In this document: positions 17,519 to 27,542 of the stretch, piece by piece
Layout: each line of letters begins with the position of its first letter
Position numbering within the stretch: the stretch's first letter is position 1
Origin: Escherichia phage SME50
Strand: one strand, 5' to 3'
Sequence record: MT887289.1
Length of the DNA: 64,000 nt
The notes under the pieces: generated by a model
Told to the model about the DNA's origin: nothing
Database searches by the model: none
The model's input: the letters and a program-made list of their open reading frames with translations, nothing else
Position numbers and translations under genes: made by a program

Positions 17519-18304
17519 ATGGGTATTGTAAAAATTATCAATGGGGATATCTTCTCAGCATTTGATAAAGGTAAGTTTGATATCATTGGTCACGGTTGCA
17601 ACTGTATGAACTTAATGGGTGCAGGTATCGCTGACAAGATTTCTAAACTTTACCCAAAAGCATATGAGACTGATACAGAAGTTTATCTGTATGCAGGAGG
17701 TATAGGTCACAAACCCTGTGAAAATTTACTAGGCAACTTCTCTGTAGCACGTTTAAAACAAGGACGTATAGCTAACCTTTACACTCAGCTTAAGACTGGT
17801 AAAGATGCCCGATACAGTGCTTTAGAGTCATCTTTGAAACAGCTTAACAGATACTGTGAAGTCAATCAGTTGAAGAAAGTTGGGTTACCTATGATTGGTG
17901 CAGGTATCGGTGGACTAGACCCTCAAGCCGTCACAGTTATCATTAATCAGGTGATGAAGAGTGTAGATGTGTATCTGTATGTCTACGAAGGAGAGATGTA
18001 CCACAAGTTACGCTCAGGTTGGAAGAACTACTGTGAACCAGAATACTTTGCAGGTGTAGTAGTGTTCACTGATGATGCAGTTACCCTCTTCAGACGAAGA
18101 AAAGGTAAGATACATCAAAGTAACCCTCCGGTTGAAAAGATGTCTCTAAGTAACGCTCTAGTTACCCACCTGTCGAAGAGCAATCACAGAATTGCAGTAA
18201 CATTTGGCAGTGATGCAGATACATATATCTATGCAAGAACTGATGAGGATGTTGAGGAAATTTTCTCTTCACCGGAAGTAACCTTCTTAGACGCAAAGAA
18301 CTAA
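17519..18304 (+). CDS. macro-domain-like protein (ADP-ribose binding/processing) with C-terminal extension
   Basis: N-terminal IINGDIFSAF...DIIGHGCNCMNLMGAGIA and later GLPMIGAGIGG resemble macro-domain Gly-rich loops. Confidence 0.5.
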   Translation: MGIVKIINGDIFSAFDKGKFDIIGHGCNCMNLMGAGIADKISKLYPKAYETDTEVYLYAGGIGHKPCENLLGNFSVARLKQGRIANLYTQLKTGKDARYSALESSLKQLNRYCEVNQLKKVGLPMIGAGIGGLDPQAVTVIINQVMKSVDVYLYVYEGEMYHKLRSGWKNYCEPEYFAGVVVFTDDAVTLFRRRKGKIHQSNPPVEKMSLSNALVTHLSKSNHRIAVTFGSDADTYIYARTDEDVEEIFSSPEVTFLDAKN

Positions 18305-18375
18305 GAAACTCTGTAGAATATTCACAATAGGTTAAGCCTTTCTTATCTGGTAAATTTTTCAGGTAAGGAGGGCTT

Positions 18376-18571
18376 TTTCATTTCAGGATTGTGCAGGTAG
18401 AGTTCTGGACAGAAATCTGTAGAGAAAATTTTGAACTCCAAAGAGAAAATTCATTTTCAAACTGTGCAGGTAATCTCCAAAGAGCTTTTTCATTTTCAAA
18501 ACGTGCAGACCCCGCTCAGGTCGGGCAAGAAAAATCATTTTAGAATTGTGCAGGTAGGTGGGTGCAGGTGG
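18376..18571. repeat. four direct repeats of about 22 bp (TTCATTTTCAAAnnGTGCAGGT) in an intergenic region
   Basis: Copies near 18376, 18449, 18488, 18535, followed by GTGGGTGCAGGTGGGG. Confidence 0.6.
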
Positions 18572-18743
18572 GGATGTCGCCATTTCTCACAAGGCTACCA
18601 CATCTGAAAAGAAAAGTCAACAGAAAAATTTGTAGCGGATTGAAAAATAATTCTTGATTGTAGTTCTGTTTTGTGGTAGTCGCGTGCGCCCGTTTCATTA
18701 CAGTTTTTGCAAAAATATTTTTAAAATTCCTATTGACTCTTTG

Positions 18744-18772
18744 AATATGGTTATCTAATATTTGCATCAGAC
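18744..18772 (+). promoter_or_regulatory. sigma70-like promoter for the small-gene cluster
   Basis: TTGACT - 17 nt - TAATAT. Confidence 0.5.
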
Positions 18773-18811
18773 GGGCAATCAAGCCCACTTCCTAAACTGG
18801 AGAATCAAAAA

Positions 18812-19018
18812 ATGCTTTACAGTCGTGAATTGATGGTTACAACTAACGTTAACACAAAGGTAAAACGTTTTTATATGCAAGTGTGCGGCGCATGGCGTAG
18901 AATATCAGAAGCTGATTATTGCAACTATGTAGAAACGGCAATCAATTCTAATTGCTACCTTACGAAGAATACAAAGCGACATATAAAACAGACAGCGGTT
19001 TACTATTACGATATATAA
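18812..19018 (+). CDS. small hypothetical protein (small-gene cluster)
   Basis: 68-aa ORF preceded by GGAGAATCAAAAAATG leader. Confidence 0.5.
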   Translation: MLYSRELMVTTNVNTKVKRFYMQVCGAWRRISEADYCNYVETAINSNCYLTKNTKRHIKQTAVYYYDI

Positions 19019-19025
19019 AAAGTAC

Positions 19026-19054
19026 TTTACAGGGGGCTTAAAAGCTGATATCTT
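19026..19054 (+). promoter_or_regulatory. promoter cassette, type 1 (TTTACA - 17-nt GC-palindromic spacer - TATCTT)
   Basis: Conserved AGTACTTTACAGGGGGCTTA...TAAGCCCC element followed by leader CCTTAAACTAGGAGATTCAAAAATG. Confidence 0.45.
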
Positions 19055-19108
19055 AAGCCCCAGATAAAGAGCTTTACTTAATTAACCCTTAAACTAGGAG
19101 ATTCAAAA

Positions 19109-19489
19109 ATGGCTTATCGTGCACCTAAATTCATCAACAAAGACAACTTTCGCAACGCACTGGAGAAGTCACTTGATGAAAATTTTAAAGGTAACATTAT
19201 CGTTGTTCACGCATTCAATTTTAAGTATGATGTAAACGGGAATAGAATCAACCATTACACAGCAACCATGTTAGATGGTACGCTATCAAGTGAAAAAGCT
19301 GTACTGAATGCACTTGCAGGACGTGGTAAAAACCTGATAAGATGCGATAAGAGACGTTATCAGGGTGGCGCATATGGTTATGATGATGCTGTTTATCATC
19401 TTGAAAATATGGGCTATTCAGTGGAAAAAGCTGGAGTGTCTCAAATAATCGGCAGTGACGGCTATGTGACAATTTTCAAAATTAACTAA
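19109..19489 (+). CDS. small hypothetical protein (small-gene cluster)
   Basis: 126-aa ORF behind conserved leader. Confidence 0.55.
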   Translation: MAYRAPKFINKDNFRNALEKSLDENFKGNIIVVHAFNFKYDVNGNRINHYTATMLDGTLSSEKAVLNALAGRGKNLIRCDKRRYQGGAYGYDDAVYHLENMGYSVEKAGVSQIIGSDGYVTIFKIN

Positions 19490-19497
19490 TAAAGTAC

Positions 19498-19526
19498 TTT
19501 ACAGGGGGCTTATAGTTCGATAAAGT
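19498..19526 (+). promoter_or_regulatory. promoter cassette, type 1 (TTTACA - 17 - TAAAGT)
   Basis: Same conserved hairpin-containing cassette. Confidence 0.45.
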
Positions 19527-19580
19527 AAGCCCCAGATAAAGAGCTTTACTTAATTAACCCTTAAACTAGGAGATTCAAAA

Positions 19581-19871
19581 ATGGCTATTATTAAAAACGT
19601 TGTAATTCCTGCAAAAACTCGTGATGACGCTCGCATCATGGCGAAAAAGTTAGGCGGGAAAGTGGTTGACAACGGAAAACAAACTGCTGTAAGGTGGAAC
19701 GTGAAGGCGGATAAACAAATGAATTTAAAAAATTCACCAATAAACCTTTTTACATGTGTAAACACTATCGGGAAAACGAATGTATACACTAAAAAGGCAT
19801 ATATCAGACGCATCGCCATGACGTCACCTATTCGCACAATGAGAAGTCATGCAAAGCTGAAAATTAAGTAA
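19581..19871 (+). CDS. small hypothetical protein (small-gene cluster)
   Basis: 96-aa ORF behind conserved leader. Confidence 0.55.
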   Translation: MAIIKNVVIPAKTRDDARIMAKKLGGKVVDNGKQTAVRWNVKADKQMNLKNSPINLFTCVNTIGKTNVYTKKAYIRRIAMTSPIRTMRSHAKLKIK

Positions 19872-19879
19872 TAGAGTAC

Positions 19880-19908
19880 TTTACAGGGGGCTTAAAAGCT
19901 GATATCTT
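19880..19908 (+). promoter_or_regulatory. promoter cassette, type 1 (TTTACA - 17 - TATCTT)
   Basis: Same conserved cassette. Confidence 0.45.
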
Positions 19909-19961
19909 AAGCCCCAGATAAAGAGCTTTACCACTCAATCCTTAAACTAGGAGATTCAAAA

Positions 19962-20474
19962 ATGAAAACTGTAGACGCTACCTTTGAAGTTGTAAAAGAA
20001 AAATTTTCCATCATTTACGAAGCTGTCAATTGCTACGAAGCAAGCCATAATCTTGATAATTGGAAGTTTACAGATGACCATCAAGGCGGTGTGACTATTA
20101 AAAACCCCAACTGTCAGCGTAATGGATTTAAATATGCAATTCCTTTACATTACAGCCTTAAACAGCTTTCAATTGACTATGCAAAACAAGGCCGGGAAAA
20201 TCCATCGAAAGAGGCTTACATCAGCTTACAGAAAGAACTAGAAAGAGATTTAGAGGCTTCAGAATATAACATCGCCGCGAAAGTTGTAGATGCAAACGGT
20301 AGCACGGTTTTAGAGAGTTTTTATATTGGTTATGCTTTCGATTGGTGCTACAGTGACGGCGATGATTTAGATGACAGACTAAAAGAGGAAGTGAACAACG
20401 CAGACGCAGAATCTGAAGTATTAGAACGCTTGGAAGCATTAAAAGATTCAGTGATGAATATCTTTAAGAACTAA
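19962..20474 (+). CDS. small hypothetical protein (small-gene cluster)
   Basis: 170-aa ORF behind conserved leader. Confidence 0.55.
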   Translation: MKTVDATFEVVKEKFSIIYEAVNCYEASHNLDNWKFTDDHQGGVTIKNPNCQRNGFKYAIPLHYSLKQLSIDYAKQGRENPSKEAYISLQKELERDLEASEYNIAAKVVDANGSTVLESFYIGYAFDWCYSDGDDLDDRLKEEVNNADAESEVLERLEALKDSVMNIFKN

Positions 20475-20483
20475 ATAGACCTC

Positions 20484-20512
20484 TTTACACGGGGCTAACA
20501 AGCGGATATGAT
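20484..20512 (+). promoter_or_regulatory. promoter cassette, type 1 variant (TTTACA - 17 - TATGAT)
   Basis: CTCTTTACACGGGGCTAACAAGCGGATATGATAGCCCC then conserved leader. Confidence 0.45.
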
Positions 20513-20565
20513 AGCCCCAGATAAAGAGATTTATCAAATTAACCCTTAAACTAGGAGATTCAAAA

Positions 20566-20862
20566 ATGAAACTATCAAATAAAGTCCGTGAAAATCTAAG
20601 CAAGTTGCTTAATAAAATTGATTTCATTGAAACATCAAGGAATAGCCATGATGTTATGGAATGGTTACACGGAAAAATCAAAGGCCGTCGTGTAGTGATT
20701 TGCTTATGGAATAGTTGCAGGGAATATAAAAAACCTGTATTACAAGTCAATATCTATGATGATACTTTTAAAAGCCCTGTAAAGTCTAAAAGCGATTTAT
20801 TAGAATCTTATGAGATAACTGTAAATGGCAAGGTATCACGTAAAGAGGAAGCACCATGTTAA
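20566..20862 (+). CDS. small hypothetical protein (small-gene cluster)
   Basis: 98-aa ORF behind conserved leader. Confidence 0.55.
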   Translation: MKLSNKVRENLSKLLNKIDFIETSRNSHDVMEWLHGKIKGRRVVICLWNSCREYKKPVLQVNIYDDTFKSPVKSKSDLLESYEITVNGKVSRKEEAPC

Positions 20863-21188
20863 TGATGGGTATCACTGCAATCATTGCCATTATAGCACTT
20901 TACAAGGCTTATAGCGCATATAATTTGGCAAGTAAGGCAATCACGCAGCAGGTCAATAATAACCTTGTAATGAGCTTTCTGGAGCGTTTAAGCGATGAAC
21001 AAATAAAACGGTTAGAAATGAGCTTCAGATTTCAATCAAAAACTTATCAAATCAGCGACATTTTCAAAGATGATTTTCAGCTCGTCGATGATTATAACTC
21101 TCTGATAAATGCTTTAAATATCAGTGATTTAAAAGATTATCATGCTGTAATAGTTCAAGAATTGAGCAAACGAAAACAAAATTCTTGA
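20856..21188 (+). CDS. small membrane protein (small-gene cluster)
   Basis: 110-aa ORF with N-terminal TM segment; overlaps the upstream stop. Confidence 0.5.
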   Translation: MLMMGITAIIAIIALYKAYSAYNLASKAITQQVNNNLVMSFLERLSDEQIKRLEMSFRFQSKTYQISDIFKDDFQLVDDYNSLINALNISDLKDYHAVIVQELSKRKQNS

Positions 21189-21213
21189 CACTGATTTTTA
21201 GATAGATTAAATT
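21185..21213 (+). promoter_or_regulatory. promoter cassette, type 2 (TTGACA - 17 - TAAATT) with conserved hairpin leader
   Basis: TTGACACTGATTTTTAGATAGATTAAATT, then leader ATCAACGGGGAGGGATTAACCTTCCC...CCTTAAACTAGGAGATTCGAAAATG. Confidence 0.55.
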
Positions 21214-21277
21214 ACTCATCAACGGGGAGGGATTAACCTTCCCACTAAGTAAAGTCCTTAAACTAGGAGATTCGAAA

Positions 21278-21436
21278 ATGATTCAAATAGGTGATAAAGT
21301 TGTCTGGAACGATATAGACAATGATTTATGCACAAAAATTGTAATTGTCTTAGAGCTTGATTATATAATTGGTGTTGCAACTGTTGCAGATAATGATATA
21401 ATCTTTGATGTTTTAATCAGTGAGCTATCGAAATAA
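21278..21436 (+). CDS. small hypothetical protein (52 aa; below track cutoff)
   Basis: ATG directly after the conserved leader; open frame to TAA at 21434-21436. Confidence 0.4.
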   Translation: MIQIGDKVVWNDIDNDLCTKIVIVLELDYIIGVATVADNDIIFDVLISELSK

Positions 21437-21459
21437 GCCTTAAACTAGGAGATTCGAAA

Positions 21460-21732
21460 ATGTATACTACTAACAACGGTCGCACTTTGAACGTAACCCT
21501 GCGCCACTATGTGAACGGTGTAATGCACTTCGAGGATTTACAAGCCGAACAACATATCTTGGATTGGCAAGTAGCAGGACTCCAAAAAACTGCTACAGGA
21601 TACGGGAAAAAGATTCCAACTAGTTGGAAAGTATACTACGAAGGGCGTTTGCGCAGAATTTATCAAGATGTATACAGTAATAGCGCATCAAGTTACATCA
21701 TAGTAAAAGGTAAAAAGCTGCATTTAGTATAA
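21460..21732 (+). CDS. small hypothetical protein (small-gene cluster)
   Basis: 90-aa ORF preceded by leader GCCTTAAACTAGGAGATTCGAAAATG. Confidence 0.55.
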   Translation: MYTTNNGRTLNVTLRHYVNGVMHFEDLQAEQHILDWQVAGLQKTATGYGKKIPTSWKVYYEGRLRRIYQDVYSNSASSYIIVKGKKLHLV

Positions 21733-21737
21733 AGTAC

Positions 21738-21766
21738 TTTACAAGGGGCTTATAGTTCGATAAAGT
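21738..21766 (+). promoter_or_regulatory. promoter cassette, type 1 (TTTACA - 17 - TAAAGT)
   Basis: Same conserved cassette. Confidence 0.45.
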
Positions 21767-21817
21767 AAGCCCCAGATAAAGAGCTTTAACACTCAATCCT
21801 AAATTGGAGATTCTAAA

Positions 21818-22222
21818 ATGGCTATTAATAATCGTGAGTTATCAATCTTAAAAGCACGTTTGACCGTTAATCGGATTAATGTTATTACATCATCAGCACC
21901 GGATGAGACATTGCACAACATTATCGGGAAGATTCAAAGTGTTATCTTAGACGTTGAAAACGTAAAAAACTCACTGGCTGACGTTGCAGCAGGTATCACG
22001 CTAGACGGTGCGCAATATGAAATGGCTGACATGTTAGGCAAATCTAAGGTAATGAATAAAGAGTTAGACTTGAAAATGTTTAGATTTGCTGTTAAAGTGT
22101 GGCTATCTGTCGAGTATGACGCAAATTTTGCAATCGCTGACTTTTTCGCAACATGGTTGCAACGTAATTTAACAAATCATGATTTCCGTGATGTCTGTGA
22201 TGCAATTTATGCGGAACTCTAA
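21818..22222 (+). CDS. small hypothetical protein (small-gene cluster)
   Basis: 134-aa ORF. Confidence 0.55.
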   Translation: MAINNRELSILKARLTVNRINVITSSAPDETLHNIIGKIQSVILDVENVKNSLADVAAGITLDGAQYEMADMLGKSKVMNKELDLKMFRFAVKVWLSVEYDANFAIADFFATWLQRNLTNHDFRDVCDAIYAEL

Positions 22223-22235
22223 AAAAAAAAAACTG

Positions 22236-22264
22236 TTGACACTGATTTTTAGATATATTAAATT
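22236..22264 (+). promoter_or_regulatory. promoter cassette, type 2 (TTGACA - 17 - TAAATT)
   Basis: TTGACACTGATTTTTAGATATATTAAATT plus hairpin leader. Confidence 0.55.
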
Positions 22265-22329
22265 ACGCATTAACGGGGAGGGAATGAACTTCCCCACTAA
22301 GTAAAGTCCTTAAACTAGGAGATTCTAAA

Positions 22330-22533
22330 ATGGCTATTATTAACGGCTTAACCATTGAAACAACACACATCAAAGACATTAAAGTTGGTGATGTAGTCCT
22401 TTCCCACGGCGTAGAGAAAACTGTTACTGCAAAGGATATTAAAGAGGATTCTTTCATGGGTAGGACTCTCTTCGGTGATTCTTATTGCTTGGGTTATCTT
22501 GCAGTTTTAAAAGTTGTCAAAAATAACCGTTAA
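22330..22533 (+). CDS. small hypothetical protein (small-gene cluster)
   Basis: 67-aa ORF behind conserved leader. Confidence 0.5.
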   Translation: MAIINGLTIETTHIKDIKVGDVVLSHGVEKTVTAKDIKEDSFMGRTLFGDSYCLGYLAVLKVVKNNR

Positions 22534-22538
22534 AGTAC

Positions 22539-22567
22539 TTTACAAGGGGCTTATAGTTCGATAAAGT
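22539..22567 (+). promoter_or_regulatory. promoter cassette, type 1 (TTTACA - 17 - TAAAGT)
   Basis: Same conserved cassette. Confidence 0.45.
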
Positions 22568-22625
22568 AAGCCCCAGATAAAGAGCTTTACCACTCAATCA
22601 AGTCCTTAAACTAGGAGATTCAAAA

Positions 22626-23189
22626 ATGAAATGCTATCACGGCACTACTCTGAAAAACTTTGTAAACCTGCTGAATGGTGGCGACAAGCCTGAAGGAATC
22701 TGGAACTGCTCCTACATGGATGATTGTTTCTACGTTTACCCAATGAACAAGGTTATCAAAACGGAATGTCTGGAAGATGAGGAAGATTCTTATATCCGTG
22801 AACGCTGCATTCAAAGCGCCTTAGAGTCTGGACTTATTACGGCAGCTTTCCAAATGGAAACGCAGGAAGTGATTGTTATCGAAATGGATATCCCAGAGGA
22901 AGAACTTGAGGACGATTATTCTTGTGACAACATGAGCGAAATTGCCAGCTTTACCGGATACTTTGATAAGAATTGGATTATCGGTATACACTCGACGAAA
23001 TTTAGTGCGATGTATGCGCCTTTCTTTGTACCGGATACAACTAACCGTAATTTAGGATATATTGACGATGATTTGTTAAGTATGGCGAAAATTGTACAGA
23101 ATAGCGGTGATAGTTCCGTGTTTTGTGACCTACTTGATAAAATCACGGCAAACATCACAGAACGCAATTTAAAAGACTTTTTAGGTTAA
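22626..23189 (+). CDS. hypothetical acidic protein (small-gene cluster)
   Basis: 187-aa ORF behind conserved leader. Confidence 0.55.
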   Translation: MKCYHGTTLKNFVNLLNGGDKPEGIWNCSYMDDCFYVYPMNKVIKTECLEDEEDSYIRERCIQSALESGLITAAFQMETQEVIVIEMDIPEEELEDDYSCDNMSEIASFTGYFDKNWIIGIHSTKFSAMYAPFFVPDTTNRNLGYIDDDLLSMAKIVQNSGDSSVFCDLLDKITANITERNLKDFLG

Positions 23190-23252
23190 TCAGTACAAAG
23201 ACACCAACTTCCAACTTAAGGCCCGTACAGGGCCATTTAGAGGGCTTCAATC

Positions 23253-23486
23253 ATGCTTACAACCATTTACCTCATCCTTTCCATTTGTAATGGTCATTCA
23301 TGCGATTTTAAAGGGCTTGAGGAGTTTACAGGGAGTAAAGAAAATGTTATTCATACCTGTCAGATAGCAAGGCAAGACTATCCCGCCAGTGATGATATAC
23401 AATGTTACTTTAAGACAGAAGATAATGACGGCGTTTATTTTGATAGCGTAGACGGTCAATATGAAATTATCATTGAAAAAGACTAG
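23253..23486 (+). CDS. small hypothetical protein
   Basis: 77-aa ORF; preceded by hairpin GGCCCGTACAGGGCC rather than the conserved leader. Confidence 0.45.
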   Translation: MLTTIYLILSICNGHSCDFKGLEEFTGSKENVIHTCQIARQDYPASDDIQCYFKTEDNDGVYFDSVDGQYEIIIEKD

Positions 23487-23512
23487 ACAAGCCTGATAAA
23501 AGTCTGTAAATT
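23484..23512 (+). promoter_or_regulatory. promoter cassette, type 2 (TAGACA - 17 - TAAATT)
   Basis: Followed by the ATCAACGGGGAGG... hairpin leader. Confidence 0.5.
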
Positions 23513-23576
23513 GTCAATCAACGGGGAGGTAATAACCTCCCTACTAAACAAAATCCTTAAACTAGGAGATTCGAAA

Positions 23577-23918
23577 ATGGCTTATGTAACCGTAATTACC
23601 AATAAAGAAGATTCATCTTGGTCAACTCAAGTAAGTGACAAGATGTCACCTATGCAGTGCCTAAAATACTTTGAGCAATGGAACAAAGGTGAGGAAACAA
23701 GCCCCTTTCAAGTAATGCAGATTATCCATACAGACAACGAAGGGAATAAAACTGTTTTGAATAGTGAGTACTATGCAACCAGATTCGAAACGAGAAGTAA
23801 AGCAATGAAACTCTTACGTGAATCCGGTTATTCTCATATTGCCGCGCTAATCTGGGATGACCTCCTAAAAAGTCAGCGTATCAGTTATGTAAAACCTGAA
23901 AAAATATTCATCAGTTAA
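23577..23918 (+). CDS. small hypothetical protein (small-gene cluster)
   Basis: Start reassigned to the ATG (MAYVTVITNK) directly after the conserved leader; track ORF starts at 23511 inside the leader. Confidence 0.5.
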   Translation: MAYVTVITNKEDSSWSTQVSDKMSPMQCLKYFEQWNKGEETSPFQVMQIIHTDNEGNKTVLNSEYYATRFETRSKAMKLLRESGYSHIAALIWDDLLKSQRISYVKPEKIFIS

Positions 23919-24047
23919 TCAACAACTTACAAAAAACTTTTAAAAAAGTGTTGACAATGCCCCTTGACATTGGTAACTTTGTTCGAGGGGGTTTATCTAA
24001 AAGGGATTAACTTAAAAGATTCTTTATAGATAAACTTAAAAAATTGC

Positions 24048-24076
24048 TTGCAATCAGATATCAAAACAAGTAAATT
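24048..24076 (+). promoter_or_regulatory. promoter cassette, type 2 (TTGCAA - 17 - TAAATT)
   Basis: Followed by hairpin leader. Confidence 0.5.
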
Positions 24077-24138
24077 ACTAATCAACGGGAGGGATAACCT
24101 CCCCACTAAGTAAAGTCCTTAAACTAGGAGATTCAAAA

Positions 24139-24669
24139 ATGAACAAATTTCAAGCTATCAATTACATCCGCTCAAATAGTGTTATGTCAAAGCCTGTTAA
24201 AGACACCTATGAATTTCGTTGCAATGGTGTACACTTTGCAACCATCACCAAATCAGAAAACGGGGCTTATTACGTTCATCGCCGTAATGTTGCAACCGTT
24301 GTAGTCTCTCACTTTATGCAAGCTGTCGCGGAACTTCTCCCGATGTTTTTAGGGCTTTACTTAGATGAGTGTAAGCACATTCATAACCATGTTAAAAGCC
24401 TTTTAAACGGTTATAAAATGGCTTATGAGCGTTCTATCAAGTCCTTAAACAAGTTTTACAACGCACCTGAAAACACCGTATCAATGGCATACGCTGTAAA
24501 GGGTGAGGCGGTGAGTCTCTTCGAAGTGGAAGAAATCGAGCTTTATGACCATCGCCCCAATGGTTACGCTAAAACTCTCGGTGAAGGTTTAACGTTCAAT
24601 ATCAAGAACTTAGAAAAAACTTTAAAAGATATTGAAAAAGATATTGACGAGACAATCAAAAGTCTGTAA
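24139..24669 (+). CDS. hypothetical protein (small-gene cluster)
   Basis: 176-aa ORF behind conserved leader. Confidence 0.55.
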   Translation: MNKFQAINYIRSNSVMSKPVKDTYEFRCNGVHFATITKSENGAYYVHRRNVATVVVSHFMQAVAELLPMFLGLYLDECKHIHNHVKSLLNGYKMAYERSIKSLNKFYNAPENTVSMAYAVKGEAVSLFEVEEIELYDHRPNGYAKTLGEGLTFNIKNLEKTLKDIEKDIDETIKSL

Positions 24670-24672
24670 ATT
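24644..24672 (+). promoter_or_regulatory. promoter cassette, type 2 (TTGACG - 17 - TAAATT)
   Basis: Lies within the 3' end of the upstream ORF; followed by hairpin leader. Confidence 0.5.
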
Positions 24673-24735
24673 GTCAATCAACGGGGAGGGAATGACCTTC
24701 CCCACTAAGTAAAGTCCTAAACTGGAGTTATCAAG

Positions 24736-24999
24736 ATGGAAAACGTCGAACTGACCACACTTTTACAAATTGCAACCGACAAAGAGGATGTAGCATTATT
24801 CCACCGTATCGAAAGTGATTTGTTCAATGGTGAAATCATTAAAGAATCTTACGAAGTGGTCGGATTCAAAGATGGTAAATCATTTGGATTCTTTGACCTC
24901 GACAAAGGCAACGCTATTACAGAGTATGATGTTTTATCTTGTGAGATTCTGACAAAATACAACGAAAAAAGACTTGCAACATACGCCAACATGCAGTAA
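24736..24999 (+). CDS. small hypothetical protein (small-gene cluster)
   Basis: 87-aa ORF; leader variant CTAAACTGGAGTTATCAAGATG. Confidence 0.5.
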   Translation: MENVELTTLLQIATDKEDVALFHRIESDLFNGEIIKESYEVVGFKDGKSFGFFDLDKGNAITEYDVLSCEILTKYNEKRLATYANMQ

Positions 25000-25002
25000 A
25001 TT
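24974..25002 (+). promoter_or_regulatory. promoter cassette, type 2 (TTGCAA - 17 - TAAATT)
   Basis: Followed by hairpin leader. Confidence 0.5.
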
Positions 25003-25067
25003 ACTAATCAACGGGGAGGGAATGACCTTCCCCACTAAGTAAAGTCCTTAAACTAGGAGATTCTAAA

Positions 25068-25316
25068 ATGGCAACTATCCGCGCAATTGTAAATTCTTAT
25101 GGCTGCTACACTCTGGACGTTAAATTTGATATAGGTGGGACCGATGAGTGTTTCGAACTGGTGAAAACAGTCATTAAACAAGTTATCCCAGACTATAACC
25201 CTACTGATGACTTCTGGAAAGATGCAGTAAAAGAGGCATTGAACGATGAATATCATTACCATTATTGGGGTGATTTGATTGTCTCCCTGTACTACAATAA
25301 ACAAGGTTGCAACTAA
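25068..25316 (+). CDS. small hypothetical protein (last of small-gene cluster)
   Basis: 82-aa ORF behind conserved leader; chosen over the antisense ORF 25053-25325. Confidence 0.5.
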   Translation: MATIRAIVNSYGCYTLDVKFDIGGTDECFELVKTVIKQVIPDYNPTDDFWKDAVKEALNDEYHYHYWGDLIVSLYYNKQGCN

Positions 25317-25353
25317 TCGGCGCAACGGGGCAAATAGCCCCAGATACCTTTAT

Positions 25354-25377
25354 AGCCCCTTAAATGGGGCTTTTTTA
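25354..25377 (+). terminator. rho-independent terminator closing the small-gene cluster
   Basis: AGCCCC-TTAAAT-GGGGCT hairpin followed by TTTTTT. Confidence 0.6.
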
Positions 25378-25399
25378 CGTCTTATCAAATCCTATACAA

Positions 25400-26900
25400 T
25401 CCTTTTCCTTTCCTTTCCAGAGTCTTACTAGACCTTAAAAGCAATAACTCTATAGCTTACTCTATAACCTTTTATCAAATCAACTTAAATATAAGCCCAT
25501 AACCCGAAAGGGAAGGGCAACCGTTTAAACGCTCTATAAAGCTCTATAACAGCCTTATCAACCTAACTTAAGGGATTGCATTAACTCACCCTAAAAAGCC
25601 CTTTATAAAGCTTCCTAGAGGCTTAAAAGAATCTTATAAGGGTGTAAGCTTTATCATCTCGTTAGTTCCTTGTGAATATCTAGAAAGGGCTTGTTAGTGT
25701 CTTAAAAGTATGTTATAGGGGCTATAAAGTAGATTAAAAGTTACTTCAAAGTTACGTAAATGCTAGCCCCCTTAACATTTTCTTAACAATTTCTTAACAA
25801 ATCCTACATAGTTATGCTTTTAAGGTACTTGTTAGCAACTTGTTAGCCCCTTGTTAAATCTCTGTTAATACCTCGTAAAAGCCTTGTAAGAGTCTTTGGC
25901 ATAGCCTTTAAAGCCTCTGTAAAGCCCTATAAAGAGCTTTCTACATAGTTGGGGTGTAATTACTAGGAAGAGACTAAAAAGAGCTTATAAGGAGCTATAA
26001 AGGGCTTTTAAGAGGGCTATTTAAAGAATCACTAAGAGAGAAAGGGAATGATAAGAAAAGAGATAGTGACCATGTTAACAGCTTGTTAAAAAGGTTAAAC
26101 ACTTGTTAGGAACTTGTTAATTATCTTAACAAAATAACTCTTTAAAATTAACTTGTTAGCTCTTGTTAGTCATCTGTTAAGCCTCTGTAAAGACTATGTA
26201 TCAACTGTTAAGAAACTGTTAAGCTCTTGTTAGTTCTGTTAAGAATCTGTTAAGACCTCTGAAGAGATGTTAAGAGGATGTAAGAACTGTTAAGAGATTG
26301 TTAATGATATTTTAAAATTCTGCAAAGGGGATGTTACAGGGATGTTAAGGGCTACCAAGCAGATATACATCCTAGACAGATATTTTTCAGTTCCTTCAAA
26401 GACCCTAAAAAATGACTTGATAGTCCTATTTTATAAAAATTTTAAAATTCTGAATAATTACCTAGACAGTCTTCTAAAAATACAGGCATAAACAGGTTTA
26501 TAAGATACCTTGTTAGTACCGTGTTAGACCTTGTGAGATAAGGTCTGTAAAGATATTCCTGTTAAGTTTGTTAAAACAGTCTATATAGAGGCTTAGTAAT
26601 ACCTAGTGAACACCTATAGAGGGTAACATAGCTGACATAGAGATTAAGAGGTGTATAGGGGCTTCTAAGAGGGTGTAGAGAGATGGTTAAGGTGATTGTA
26701 TAGGTTGTTAAGAAGGATTGTTAGAGGGCTATTTAGAAGGGCTATACAGAGGGGCTATTAAGACCACTAGATAGATACTAAGATACTATATAGTACTATA
26801 TAACTATATATATAGAGAGTAAGCTTAAGAAGGTTGTTAAGAAGGTTAGATATTTTATTCACATATGATGGTGACCCAGAGGTTGGGACAACCGATAAAA
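25400..26900. repeat. ORF-free repeat-dense region (about 28 copies of YTGTTAR plus CTnTAAAG and GGGCTAT motif families, AT-rich tract near 26760-26815)
   Basis: No ORF of 60 aa or more on either strand over about 1.6 kb; bounded by convergent terminators. Confidence 0.7.
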
Positions 26901-26912
26901 TTTTATAAAAAT

Positions 26913-26938
26913 TAAAAAGCCCCCAATTAAGGAGGCTC
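26913..26938 (-). terminator. rho-independent terminator for the minus-strand gene block
   Basis: Minus-strand hairpin AGCCTCC-TTAATT-GGGGGCT followed by TTTTT. Confidence 0.5.
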
Positions 26939-26948
26939 TTAAGATATT

Positions 26949-27542
26949 TTAAACCAGTGTTTCCAGAACTGTCTTCAGTGATGACTTGGTTGTCTGATAA
27001 AAATGAGTAAATCCATTGTTGTTATCGAATACCTGCATCATGATATCATCTCCCTTGATTGGGTACACTCGGATATCATAGTGGAACCCGTTAAAGACAG
27101 CAGAACCATTACAGAATGAACTAAAGTCATCCACTGAGATGTACTCTTCGTGACCTGTGATTTTTATACAGACACCTTTGCTCGGTCTCTTAGGGTTAAT
27201 ATCTTCCATCACAGACATATTCTGTCCACCAAGAGATACCATAGTGACCACTTTACGGTTCTTCTGTTTAAAGTACATCTTAACTTTCTGTAAAGTATCT
27301 TCATAGAACGGATAAGACTTCTCTACAAAGATTCCTTCAAGTGGCTCTTTACCATTTCTAACTTCTCTGATATGACGTACTGAGAAGATAAGTTGCTCTA
27401 GTATGTCAAGGCTTTCTTTGGAGAGTGCTTCCCGAACATCAGCCCAGTCAAGGACTAGGTAGTTGCCTTCAACTTCTTTCAAGTTATCTTTTTCCATAGC
27501 TATCACACCATTATTGTAAAACTTGGTAATCCGGTACTGCAA
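26949..27542 (-). CDS. hypothetical protein
   Basis: 197-aa ORF, last gene of the minus-strand block. Confidence 0.5.
   Translation of the reverse strand: MQYRITKFYNNGVIAMEKDNLKEVEGNYLVLDWADVREALSKESLDILEQLIFSVRHIREVRNGKEPLEGIFVEKSYPFYEDTLQKVKMYFKQKNRKVVTMVSLGGQNMSVMEDINPKRPSKGVCIKITGHEEYISVDDFSSFCNGSAVFNGFHYDIRVYPIKGDDIMMQVFDNNNGFTHFYQTTKSSLKTVLETLV

Follow-up and report, generated by a model that had tools for sequence, protein, structure and literature searches.

Organization of the array

The window analyzed here, a stretch of 64,000 nucleotides (nt) of Escherichia phage SME50 (MT887289.1), contains a 6.6-kb array (18.7–25.4 kb) of 16 open reading frames (ORFs) of 52–187 amino acids (aa), most of which stand behind one of two repeated cassettes that combine a promoter-like sequence, a stem-loop, and a translation leader. 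We consider it likely that the region is an early accessory-gene array built from cassettes of the promoter-early stem-loop (PeSL) type, each of which joins a host-type promoter to a G/C-clamped stem-loop and a standard ribosome-binding leader. On sequence similarity, the window is assigned to Felixounavirus: a megablast search of phage records with 18700–25400 matches 253 records, nearly all of them from Felix O1-like myoviruses that have Escherichia, Salmonella, Shigella, or Citrobacter as host; vB_EcoM_Shy ranks first (96.1% identity over 99% of the query). The arrays of 14 further genomes were fetched for comparison, giving, with the window, 15 genomes from four genera.

The repeats are real and far beyond chance. 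Every cassette lies on the plus strand, bracketed by two intrinsic terminators (18334–18385 and 25354–25377), whose sequences are given for Felix O1 as t13 and t23 (Whichard et al. 2010, PMC3185647, Table 2). The upstream terminator, a 17-bp stem followed by a T-run, is identical to t13; the downstream one was found in the terminator scan and is annotated as a terminator in the AYO145A record. Besides these two, the scan returned only one site, within a gene. No cassette of either type and no leader was found outside the array when both strands of the 64-kb window were scanned, and in the 43 kb scanned of the relative Bas63, the cassettes are confined to genes 98–111, likewise on one strand.

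Six type 1 and six type 2 cassettes precede 12 of the 16 genes. A preliminary description of the region, made from the sequence alone, had placed all 16 genes behind a cassette; this holds for 12 and is overstated as to the whole, since genes 18812, 20856, 21460, and 23253 (A, F, H, and L below) have neither type in front of them. The gene sizes that it gave are borne out by the ORF list.

The array opens with a predicted lead promoter (TTGACT-N17-TAATAT, 18733–18761), a short hairpin (GGGC..GCCC), and a variant leader, CCTAAACTGGAGAATC, together spanning 18733–18811; in wV8 and AYO145A, which lack gene 18812, the lead promoter is joined to a hairpin of type 2. The genes follow on the plus strand: A (68 aa, 18812–19018; phrog_5293, function unknown), B (126 aa, 19109–19489; phrog_4495), C (96 aa, 19581–19871), D (170 aa, 19962–20474; missing in wV8 and LinBro), and then E (98 aa, 20566–20862) and F (110 aa, 20856–21188), which overlap by 7 nt within 20566–21188 with no cassette between them. 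Gene G (52 aa, 21278–21436), missing in seven of 13 compared genomes, is separated from gene H (90 aa, 21460–21732) by a 23-nt intergenic gap (21437–21459) that consists of a bare leader without promoter or hairpin. After genes I (134 aa, 21818–22222), J (67 aa, 22330–22533), and K (187 aa, 22626–23189; predicted ADP-ribosyltransferase fold) comes a segment without a cassette (23220–23486), in which gene L (77 aa, 23253–23486) follows a short hairpin, GGCCCGTACAGGGCC (23220–23234). This hairpin is unrelated to those of the cassettes and is labeled a terminator in the wV8 record; gene L has its own ribosome-binding site. The array ends with genes M (113 aa, 23577–23918), N (176 aa, 24139–24669), O (87 aa, 24736–24999; missing in five compared genomes), and P (82 aa, 25068–25316). 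Before t23 lies a remnant hybrid hairpin, CAACGGGGCAAATAGCCCCAGATA (25323–25346), with a 5′ flank of type 2, a 3′ flank of type 1, and no promoter or leader, which suggests from its sequence either kinship or recombination between the two types of hairpin.

The shared leader

The leader CCTTAAACTAGGAGATTC(A/G/T)AAAATG occurs in 11 copies with at most one mismatch, all on the plus strand between 19087 and 25070, where shuffled sequences are expected to give 0. Three degenerate copies (CCTAAACTGGAG / CCTAAATTGGAG) precede genes 18812, 21818, and 24736, so that a leader is present at 14 of the 16 genes. The consensus may also be written CCTTAAACTAGGAGATTCNAAAATG / CCTTAAACTAGGAGATTCRAAAATG; the Shine-Dalgarno sequence (UAGGAG or GGAG, ~8 nt upstream of AUG) and the start codon form the 3′ end of the cassette, and one near-identical leader is common to type 1 and type 2. 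The motif had been described as preceding nearly every gene, which it does; its variable fifth base, given as A or G, can also be T. Leader variants are mosaic among Felixounavirus genomes and uniform (the "b" form throughout) within SUSP2 and within Michonne, a pattern that points to exchange or conversion among copies.

A different kind of promoter might be sought in the leader itself: a GCTTTA box lies 5′ of TAAACT, GAGCTTTA resembles the core of the T4 MotA box, and TAAACT fits TAnnnT, so that the units could be read as middle promoters of the MotA type. A start 7 nt past TAAACT would, however, land in or after the Shine-Dalgarno sequence, and the box is missing from type 2, which shares the leader. 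No proteins that modify RNA polymerase specificity are reported in Felix O1 or VpaE1 (PMC3185647; PMC4690856), a statement about those two genomes, as the window proteins were not scanned. The MotA candidate was rejected on its spacing, GCTTTA and TAAACT being separated by 2–17 nt as against the fixed 11–13 bp from MotA box to −10 in T4-type middle promoters, which also depend on a phage activator/anti-sigma pair, and we give it next to no credence.

The type 1 cassette

In the window, TTTACA of type 1 stands at 19026, 19498, 19880, 20484, 21738, and 22539, in each case separated by a spacer of exactly 17 nt from TATCTT, TAAAGT, or TATGAT. The first cassette (19019–19108) has its −35 at 19026–19031 and its −10, TATCTT, at 19049–19054, followed by the leader; the others are 19490–19580 (TAAAGT, 19521–19526), 19872–19961 (TATCTT, 19903–19908), 20475–20565 (TATGAT, 20507–20512; a variant with a compensated lower stem), 21733–21817 (TAAAGT, 21761–21766; variant leader CCTAAATTGGAG), and 22534–22625 (TAAAGT, 22562–22567). 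An A/T-rich sequence, ATAAAGTA, lies upstream of CTTTACA.

These elements are embedded in a bipartite hairpin of ~60 nt (z-scores −2.9 to −4.4). In the upper stem, the spacer contains the 5′ arm, GGGGCTTA, and the 3′ arm, TAAGCCCC, runs from the last T of the −10 through the discriminator, with the TA of the −10 located in the loop. In the lower stem, AAAGTACTTTA, which holds the −35, pairs with TAAAGAGCTTT. The helix of ~20 bp is interrupted (6 + 5 + 9 bp), with a 3 × 3 internal loop. Of the earlier account of type 1, the arrangement TTTACA-N17-TAnnnT stands; the 17-nt spacer is not itself the palindrome, which spans spacer, −10, and discriminator and whose extent had been drawn too small, the lower stem enclosing the −35 having been missed.

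TTTACA is invariant in the 86 type 1 cassettes of the 15 genomes. The spacing to TAnnnT is N17 in 80 of them and N16 or N18 in five; one lacks TAnnnT. When these were pooled with cassettes from IMG/VR, 60 of 61 distinct type 1 cassettes from four genera had TAnnnT at N17/18, with counts of at most 4 at any other offset, although the set includes 47 versions of the loop region and 13 of the hexamer. In an alignment of 51 distinct type 1 cassettes, TA at −12/−11 is invariant and the rest of the loop variable. An invariant TA inside an otherwise free loop is the pattern expected of a −10 element and not one that a hairpin loop should need.

The stems covary as well. In the bipartite structure, 94.9% of cells are paired, as against 33%–56% when the partners are slid by 1–3 columns, and compensatory changes occur at five pairs spread over both stems (for example, in the upper stem, G-C has become U-A in phiEa21-4, and the same change is seen in the lower stem of nine sequences). 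Among non-Watson-Crick cells, 87 are G·U on the sense strand and only 16 are A·C, 12 of the latter at the loop-closing pair; at pair 21–42, C-G has changed to U-G in 20 of the 51 sequences. This asymmetry indicates a hairpin of sense-strand RNA rather than a symmetric protein site or an antisense RNA.

It bears directly on the idea that the palindrome is an operator, with the two-fold symmetry of a protein site, at which a dimeric phage or host regulator would shut the array after the early phase. Inverted repeats of 8–9 bp, ~20 bp from center to center, do lie over the promoter; the symmetric change of GGGG/CCCC to GGTG/CACC in phiEa21-4 would fit a protein site equally; and how Felix O1-like phages organize and time early transcription is stated to be unknown (PMC3185647; PMC4690856). 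The G·U cells and the C-G to U-G change, however, break DNA symmetry and keep RNA pairing, the lower-stem arms are 37 bp apart, and no regulator was identified. An operator is accordingly disfavored, and we hold it to be very unlikely.

The same data speak to a neutral origin, in which the repeats would be the residue of recent tandem duplication or gene conversion, with function limited to the ribosome-binding site. The homogenized leader variants of SUSP2 and Michonne are in keeping with it, as is a tandem duplication in Michonne (below). Conservation extends, however, over four genera and down to ~78% identity in phiEa21-4, and the invariant −35 and −10 TA together with the compensatory stem changes imply selection on specific features, not drift; such an origin is therefore very improbable in our view.

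A transcription start 7–8 nt past the −10 is predicted to fall on an A just 3′ of the upper stem. Because the predicted start lies 3′ of the hairpin, the hairpin would be outside the mRNA of its own cassette and could act only on read-through RNA or on the DNA. The proposal that the palindrome serves at once as promoter spacer, regulatory hairpin, and terminator consequently fails on the second count as far as its own mRNA is concerned. On the third, it finds no support in the canonical sense, as the U-tract that defines an intrinsic terminator is absent: no U-run follows the type 1 stem (AGATAAAGAG) or the type 2 stem (ACTAAGTAAAG). A search of 18000–27000 against Rfam returned no family at E ≤ 1. 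The covariation of the lower stem implies an additional RNA-level role in read-through transcripts.

One candidate for such a role is processing. T7 early genes are separated by RNase III processing hairpins that lack promoters; like type 1, these are interrupted, span about two helical turns, and lie between consecutive small early genes, a structural resemblance only. By analogy, a single long early transcript might run from the lead promoter (18733) over the whole array, with type 1 hairpins as RNase III-type processing or stability sites and TTTACA and TAnnnT incidental. The interrupted helix with its internal loop, the compensatory changes in both stems, the G·U cells restricted to the sense strand, and the lack of a U-tract all agree with an RNA function of this kind in read-through transcripts, and cleavage 3′ of the internal loop would yield approximately the same 5′ end as the predicted start. 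Processing does not, however, require an invariant TTTACA 17 bp from TA...T in a free loop (60/61), and near-consensus sigma-70 promoters (type 2) stand in the same array. Since processing and promoter roles are compatible, cleavage would be an added function rather than a replacement, and as a full account, the single-transcript explanation seems unlikely to us.

A tentative combination of the two, which we rate as no better than an outside chance, is that type 1 is a dual-entry expression switch and not a simple promoter plus insulator, acting as a sigma-70 promoter in duplex DNA and, in RNA transcribed from upstream, as a bipartite hairpin whose internal loop is the point of cleavage or trimming. 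The covarying lower stem, the sense-strand G·U pairs, the missing U-tract, and a predicted start immediately 3′ of the upper stem would fit it without proving it. If it were true, initiation and processing would give the same standard 5′ leader, expression would be independent of neighboring genes, and the cassettes would be freely portable.

With a single type 1 cassette as query, 274 phage records were retrieved, including Suspvirus, Mooglevirus, and Erwinia phage phiEa21-4, the last of which is matched (at ~78% identity) by type 1 only and not by type 2. A scan of IMG/VR with a pattern that sets no constraint on the loop gave 45 loci, every one on a contig of 54–94 kb, and the cassettes were seen only in contigs and records of Ounavirinae size. 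Near-identical type 1 cassettes also turn up in GU169904.1 (Staphylococcus phage SA1, 93% identity) and in one Campylobacter record; these most likely reflect chimeric or contaminated assemblies containing Felix O1-like DNA and not the real distribution.

The type 2 cassette

The type 2 hairpin motif is found at 21219, 22270, 23518, 24082, 24678, and 25008. Upstream of it, TTGACA, TAGACA, TTGCAA, or TTGACG is followed by N17 and TAAATT, with AAAAA-rich runs upstream of the −35; downstream of TAAATT come ACTAATCAAC and then the GGGGAGGG..CCTTCCCC hairpin, at a fixed position 10 nt 3′ of the −10. The six cassettes span 21185–21277 (TTGACA at 21185, TAAATT at 21208–21213, hairpin from 21224, then the leader), 22236–22329 (TTGACA at 22236, TAAATT at 22259–22264; the orthologous site in AYO145A is annotated as a promoter), 23484–23576 (TAGACA at 23484, TAAATT at 23507–23512), 24048–24138 (TTGCAA at 24048–24053, TAAATT at 24071–24076), 24644–24735 (TTGACG at 24644, TAAATT at 24667–24672; variant leader), and 24974–25067 (TTGCAA at 24974–24979, TAAATT at 24997–25002).

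The promoter-like sequences are closely interlocked with the genes upstream. In four of the six window copies, a promoter hexamer takes in the stop codon of the preceding gene: TTGACA at 21185 contains TGA, TAGACA at 23484 contains TAG, and TAAATT at 24667 and 24997 contains TAA. Two of the predicted promoters (24644, at the end of gene N, and 24974, in gene O) are in part coding sequence.

Across the compared arrays, the spacing is N17 in 71 of 71 type 2 cassettes, the −35 matches TTGACA at 4–6 of its six positions, and the −10 is TAAATT in 64. Twenty-nine distinct type 2 hairpins fold at the one position, with free energies of −7.5 to −16.6 kcal/mol, and insertions or deletions in one arm are matched in the other. 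A type 2 query retrieved 237 phage records, again including Suspvirus and Mooglevirus. The sequence of elements first proposed for type 2, TTGACA, N17, TAAATT, and then a hairpin that would be transcribed, holds at this level with a TTGACA-like −35. Sigma-70-type promoters at 17-bp spacing are likewise indicated for both cassette types and conserved throughout the subfamily, and an independent promoter scan recovers 10 of the 12 cassettes.

The type 2 hairpin begins ~3–5 nt past the predicted start and would form a 5′-terminal stem-loop of its own mRNA. Stem-loops at the 5′ end, such as that of ompA, block 5′-end-dependent attack by RNase E, and the distance of the type 2 hairpin from its predicted 5′ end has the geometry of such a block.

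A further, weaker promoter-like site (TTGACA-N17-TAACTT, 23951–23979) lies in the 220-nt spacer between genes M and N, and its ortholog in AYO145A is annotated as a promoter. In this part of the spacer (23951–24047), the site overlaps an inverted repeat, CCCCTTG..CGAGGGG, 5′ of the type 2 promoter, and is kept in relatives; it could be one of a pair of tandem promoters or give a short noncoding transcript.

Recombination at the cassettes

Gene order is constant across Felixounavirus, Suspvirus, and Mooglevirus and shuffled in phiEa21-4. Gene A, genes B-C, gene D, gene G, genes J-K-L, and gene O are present in some genomes and absent from others, and additional genes occur in the arrays of wV8, SUSP2, and Michonne. 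At all seven junctions examined, the genome lacking the gene or genes has a lone cassette that matches the left parental cassette in its 5′ part and the right one in its 3′ part, with the switch in the loop, in the interval between hairpin and leader, or at the leader/ATG. For gain or loss of gene G, the crossover is between two leader copies, the bare leader at 21437–21459 being the site.

Genes are also found behind different cassettes: type 1 precedes gene B in 24 cases and type 2 does so in 13, and gene M follows type 2 in 21 cases and type 1 in six (including wV8 and Michonne). Altogether, 452 cassette-led ORFs fall into 20 families. To judge from these comparisons, the cassettes appear to be recombination joints for gene gain, loss, and swap between related phages, the main comparative signal of the region and one that the preliminary description had missed.

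In Citrobacter phage Michonne (array L009, ~1430–2300), one gene and its cassette are duplicated in tandem. A full cassette with leader and ATG is fused at the junction straight onto the type 1 cassette that follows (..AAAATGCTTTACATGGGG..) and is thereby "empty." This duplication could be a real rearrangement or an assembly artifact.

Timing, dispensability, and proteins

By the positions of the repeats, genes 15–23 of Felix O1 correspond to window genes A, D, E, F, H, I, M, N, and P. In Felix O1, reverse transcription PCR (RT-PCR) signals peak at 5 min for genes 16, 20, 21, and 22 (D, I, M, and N) and at 25 min for genes 17, 19, and 23 (E, H, and P) (PMC3185647, Table 3). None of the mapped array genes is in the 60-min late class of this crude, end-point RT-PCR (PMC3185647), so that the picture of cassettes transcribed only late, against which the early assignment had been set, does not fit the Felix O1 counterparts. 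Neither a search for transcript mapping, which was too loosely set, nor one of Felixounavirus papers that mention promoters brought up a study of this kind on Felix O1-like phages.

Genes 98–111 of Bas63 are the counterpart of the array. The main text of the PhageMaP study of Bas63 reports large nonessential segments; the only array gene that it names is gp107, the homolog of gene K, described as conditionally important in strain S17-1 and weakly similar to the NAD-binding domain of RNA 2′-phosphotransferase (bioRxiv 2024.10.10.617714).

None of the 16 genes matches Pfam, all PHROGs matches are to families of "unknown function" (with none for gene 21278), and a sequence search of the PDB with genes D, K, and N matched nothing. 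At the sequence level, the absence of recognizable domains noted earlier is therefore confirmed. For gene K, a structural model with a predicted local distance difference test (pLDDT) score of 76, built on a shallow alignment of 16 sequences, gives moderate support to an ADP-ribosyltransferase fold; H5 is nearly invariant and Y36, Y38, and E86 are invariant, the catalytic triad expected of this beta-sandwich fold being H-Y-E or R-S-E. The model of gene N (pLDDT 91) matches only generic coiled-coil or helical structures, and its homologs (P0032–P0091) carry a precomputed Pfam tag, PF26821.1. A role in host takeover or anti-defense is a guess for 15 of the genes; the predicted fold of gene K fits that guess.

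Directly upstream of the array, with one terminator between, lies a gene for a macro-domain protein (PF01661, E = 1e-7; 17519–18304). It could form a writer/eraser pair with gene K, or the two could counter host ADP-ribosylation.

Comparison with known systems

The closest known analogs, which the preliminary description did not mention, are the PeSL cassettes of the T4-like phages RB49/phi1, PST/T4, and nt-1/KVP40 (Arbiol et al. 2010, PMC2839356; Comeau et al. 2014, PMC4122927). PeSLs flank ORFans, cluster among them, and mediate modular shuffling, and their promoter and terminator activities, as well as mini-circles, were demonstrated by experiment (PMC2839356; PMC4122927), whereas the evidence on the window cassettes comes from sequence comparison. 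Both window types share with PeSLs a sigma-70-like promoter with canonical spacing and an A/T-rich stretch 5′ of the −35. In type 1, as in PeSLs, a stable stem-loop with G-run and C-run arms lies between −35 and −10 or over the −10. A Shine-Dalgarno sequence and ATG close the cassette at its 3′ end, many tandem copies lie among small genes of unknown function in a variable region, and close relatives differ by insertion, deletion, or replacement crossovers inside the cassettes (7/7 junctions here).

There are also differences. The type 2 hairpin is fixed 3′ of the start site, 10 nt past the −10; type 1 has an extra covarying lower stem around the −35; a single near-identical leader serves both types; and the pool comprises 20 families. 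The window phage belongs to the Ounavirinae, with genomes of ~88 kb, and the likeness is one of features. With every sequence-level feature of PeSLs present, we file the window cassettes as elements of the PeSL kind in another phage subfamily. The phiEa21-4 genome described by Lehman in 2009 is said to contain a dispersed conserved terminator, a different element. Our search of the literature for PeSLs in Felix O1-like phages, which did not extend to the phiEa21-4 genome paper (Lehman 2009), returned nothing relevant.

The repeats themselves have been seen before. The Felix O1 paper lists direct repeats of 57 bp, CTTTACATGGGGCTTAAAAGTCTGTAAAGTAAGCCCCAGATAAAGAGCTTTACCACT, and 39 bp, TTGACACTGGTTTTTAGATAGATTAAATTACACATCAAC, without interpretation (Whichard et al. 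2010, PMC3185647). These are the same sequences as the type 1 cassette and the type 2 promoter, respectively, but no promoter, hairpin, leader, or recombination role was assigned to them, and the five promoters predicted for Felix O1 lie outside the array (PMC3185647). The GenBank record of wV8 annotates the repeats as DR_1–DR_9, and the text of the wV8 paper does not mention them; the AYO145A record has promoters annotated at only two of the sites.

In bacteria, promoter-coupled terminators likewise combine, in one short stretch of DNA, a stem-loop for the transcript coming from upstream and a promoter for the next unit. In their geometry, the −35 is part of the stem-loop DNA, the T-tract serves as spacer, and the −10 follows (Fletcher et al. 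2026, preprint, 10.64898/2026.08.19.745784). Window type 1, by contrast, lacks a T-tract, and its −35 comes before the upper stem and its −10 within the loop.

Sequence flanking the array

Between t13 and the lead promoter, 18369–18580 contains four copies of a 28–34-nt repeat ending ..TTTTCATTTTCAAAnnGTGCAG(GTA), spaced 73, 39, and 45 nt apart. The same interval holds a GTGCAGGT doublet (18548–18570), and the pattern is iteron-like; small ORFs annotated in 18369–18580 of some relatives may be spurious.

On the other side, between the plus-strand array and the first minus-strand gene, 25400–26950 is an almost ORF-free stretch of 1.55 kb with 33.7% G+C that is conserved in relatives. On one of its strands, CT[GTA]T[TA]A[AG] recurs ~20 times, often at intervals of 10–11 or 20 nt (CTTGTTAG, CTGTTAAG, CTGTAAAG, CTATAAAG). 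The stretch might serve as an origin, in packaging or as a terminal repeat, or as an array of protein-binding sites.

Discussion

The architecture of the cassettes, their conservation, the covariation of the stems, and the chimeric junctions are direct observations; promoter activity, start sites, and effects of the hairpins on RNA are what we infer from them. In the PeSL-type reading that we favor, host sigma-70 RNA polymerase would start at ~13–14 promoters within 6.6 kb, so that most of the small genes would be transcribed individually, as short units with one and the same 5′ leader. In type 1, where the lower stem contains the −35 and the −10 is divided between loop and 3′ arm, the hairpin would be present only in RNA arriving from upstream, where it may be an attenuator, a 3′-end stabilizer, or a processing site separating units. 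In type 2, the 5′-terminal stem-loop would probably shield its own mRNA from 5′-end-dependent decay and may also provide a 3′ hairpin for read-through RNA. Being 60–90 bp long and near-identical, the cassettes would offer portable homology, and recombination between them would delete, insert, duplicate, and re-pair genes along with ready-made expression signals.

Several points weigh against this reading. Every promoter and start site is a prediction, and a generic promoter scan finds the region only mildly enriched (37 sites, against 23.8 ± 6.6 expected). The hairpins were rejected as intrinsic terminators for want of a U-tract, and type 1 is not a canonical terminator. A pure promoter would not need a covarying lower stem, which is why an additional role at the RNA level has to be allowed for. 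With its small pool of 20 families, the array is less "hyperplastic" than the corresponding T4-like regions, and each junction may reflect either an insertion or a deletion. Finally, the compared sequences are related, and the counts of cassettes and pairings are not counts of independent events.

Felix O1-like phages are widely used in typing and biocontrol, and the PeSL-type reading would give them ~13 candidate early promoters in a region for which the Felix O1 paper listed none (PMC3185647). It would also indicate that the PeSL strategy, in which standard promoter-hairpin-leader units double as recombination joints, extends beyond T4-like phages. The cassettes may serve as natural, expression-ready points for insertion or deletion in a region reported, in the main text of the Bas63 study, to be dispensable, and the ~20 early gene families, one with a predicted ADP-ribosyltransferase fold, would form a set for screening for host-takeover and anti-defense functions.

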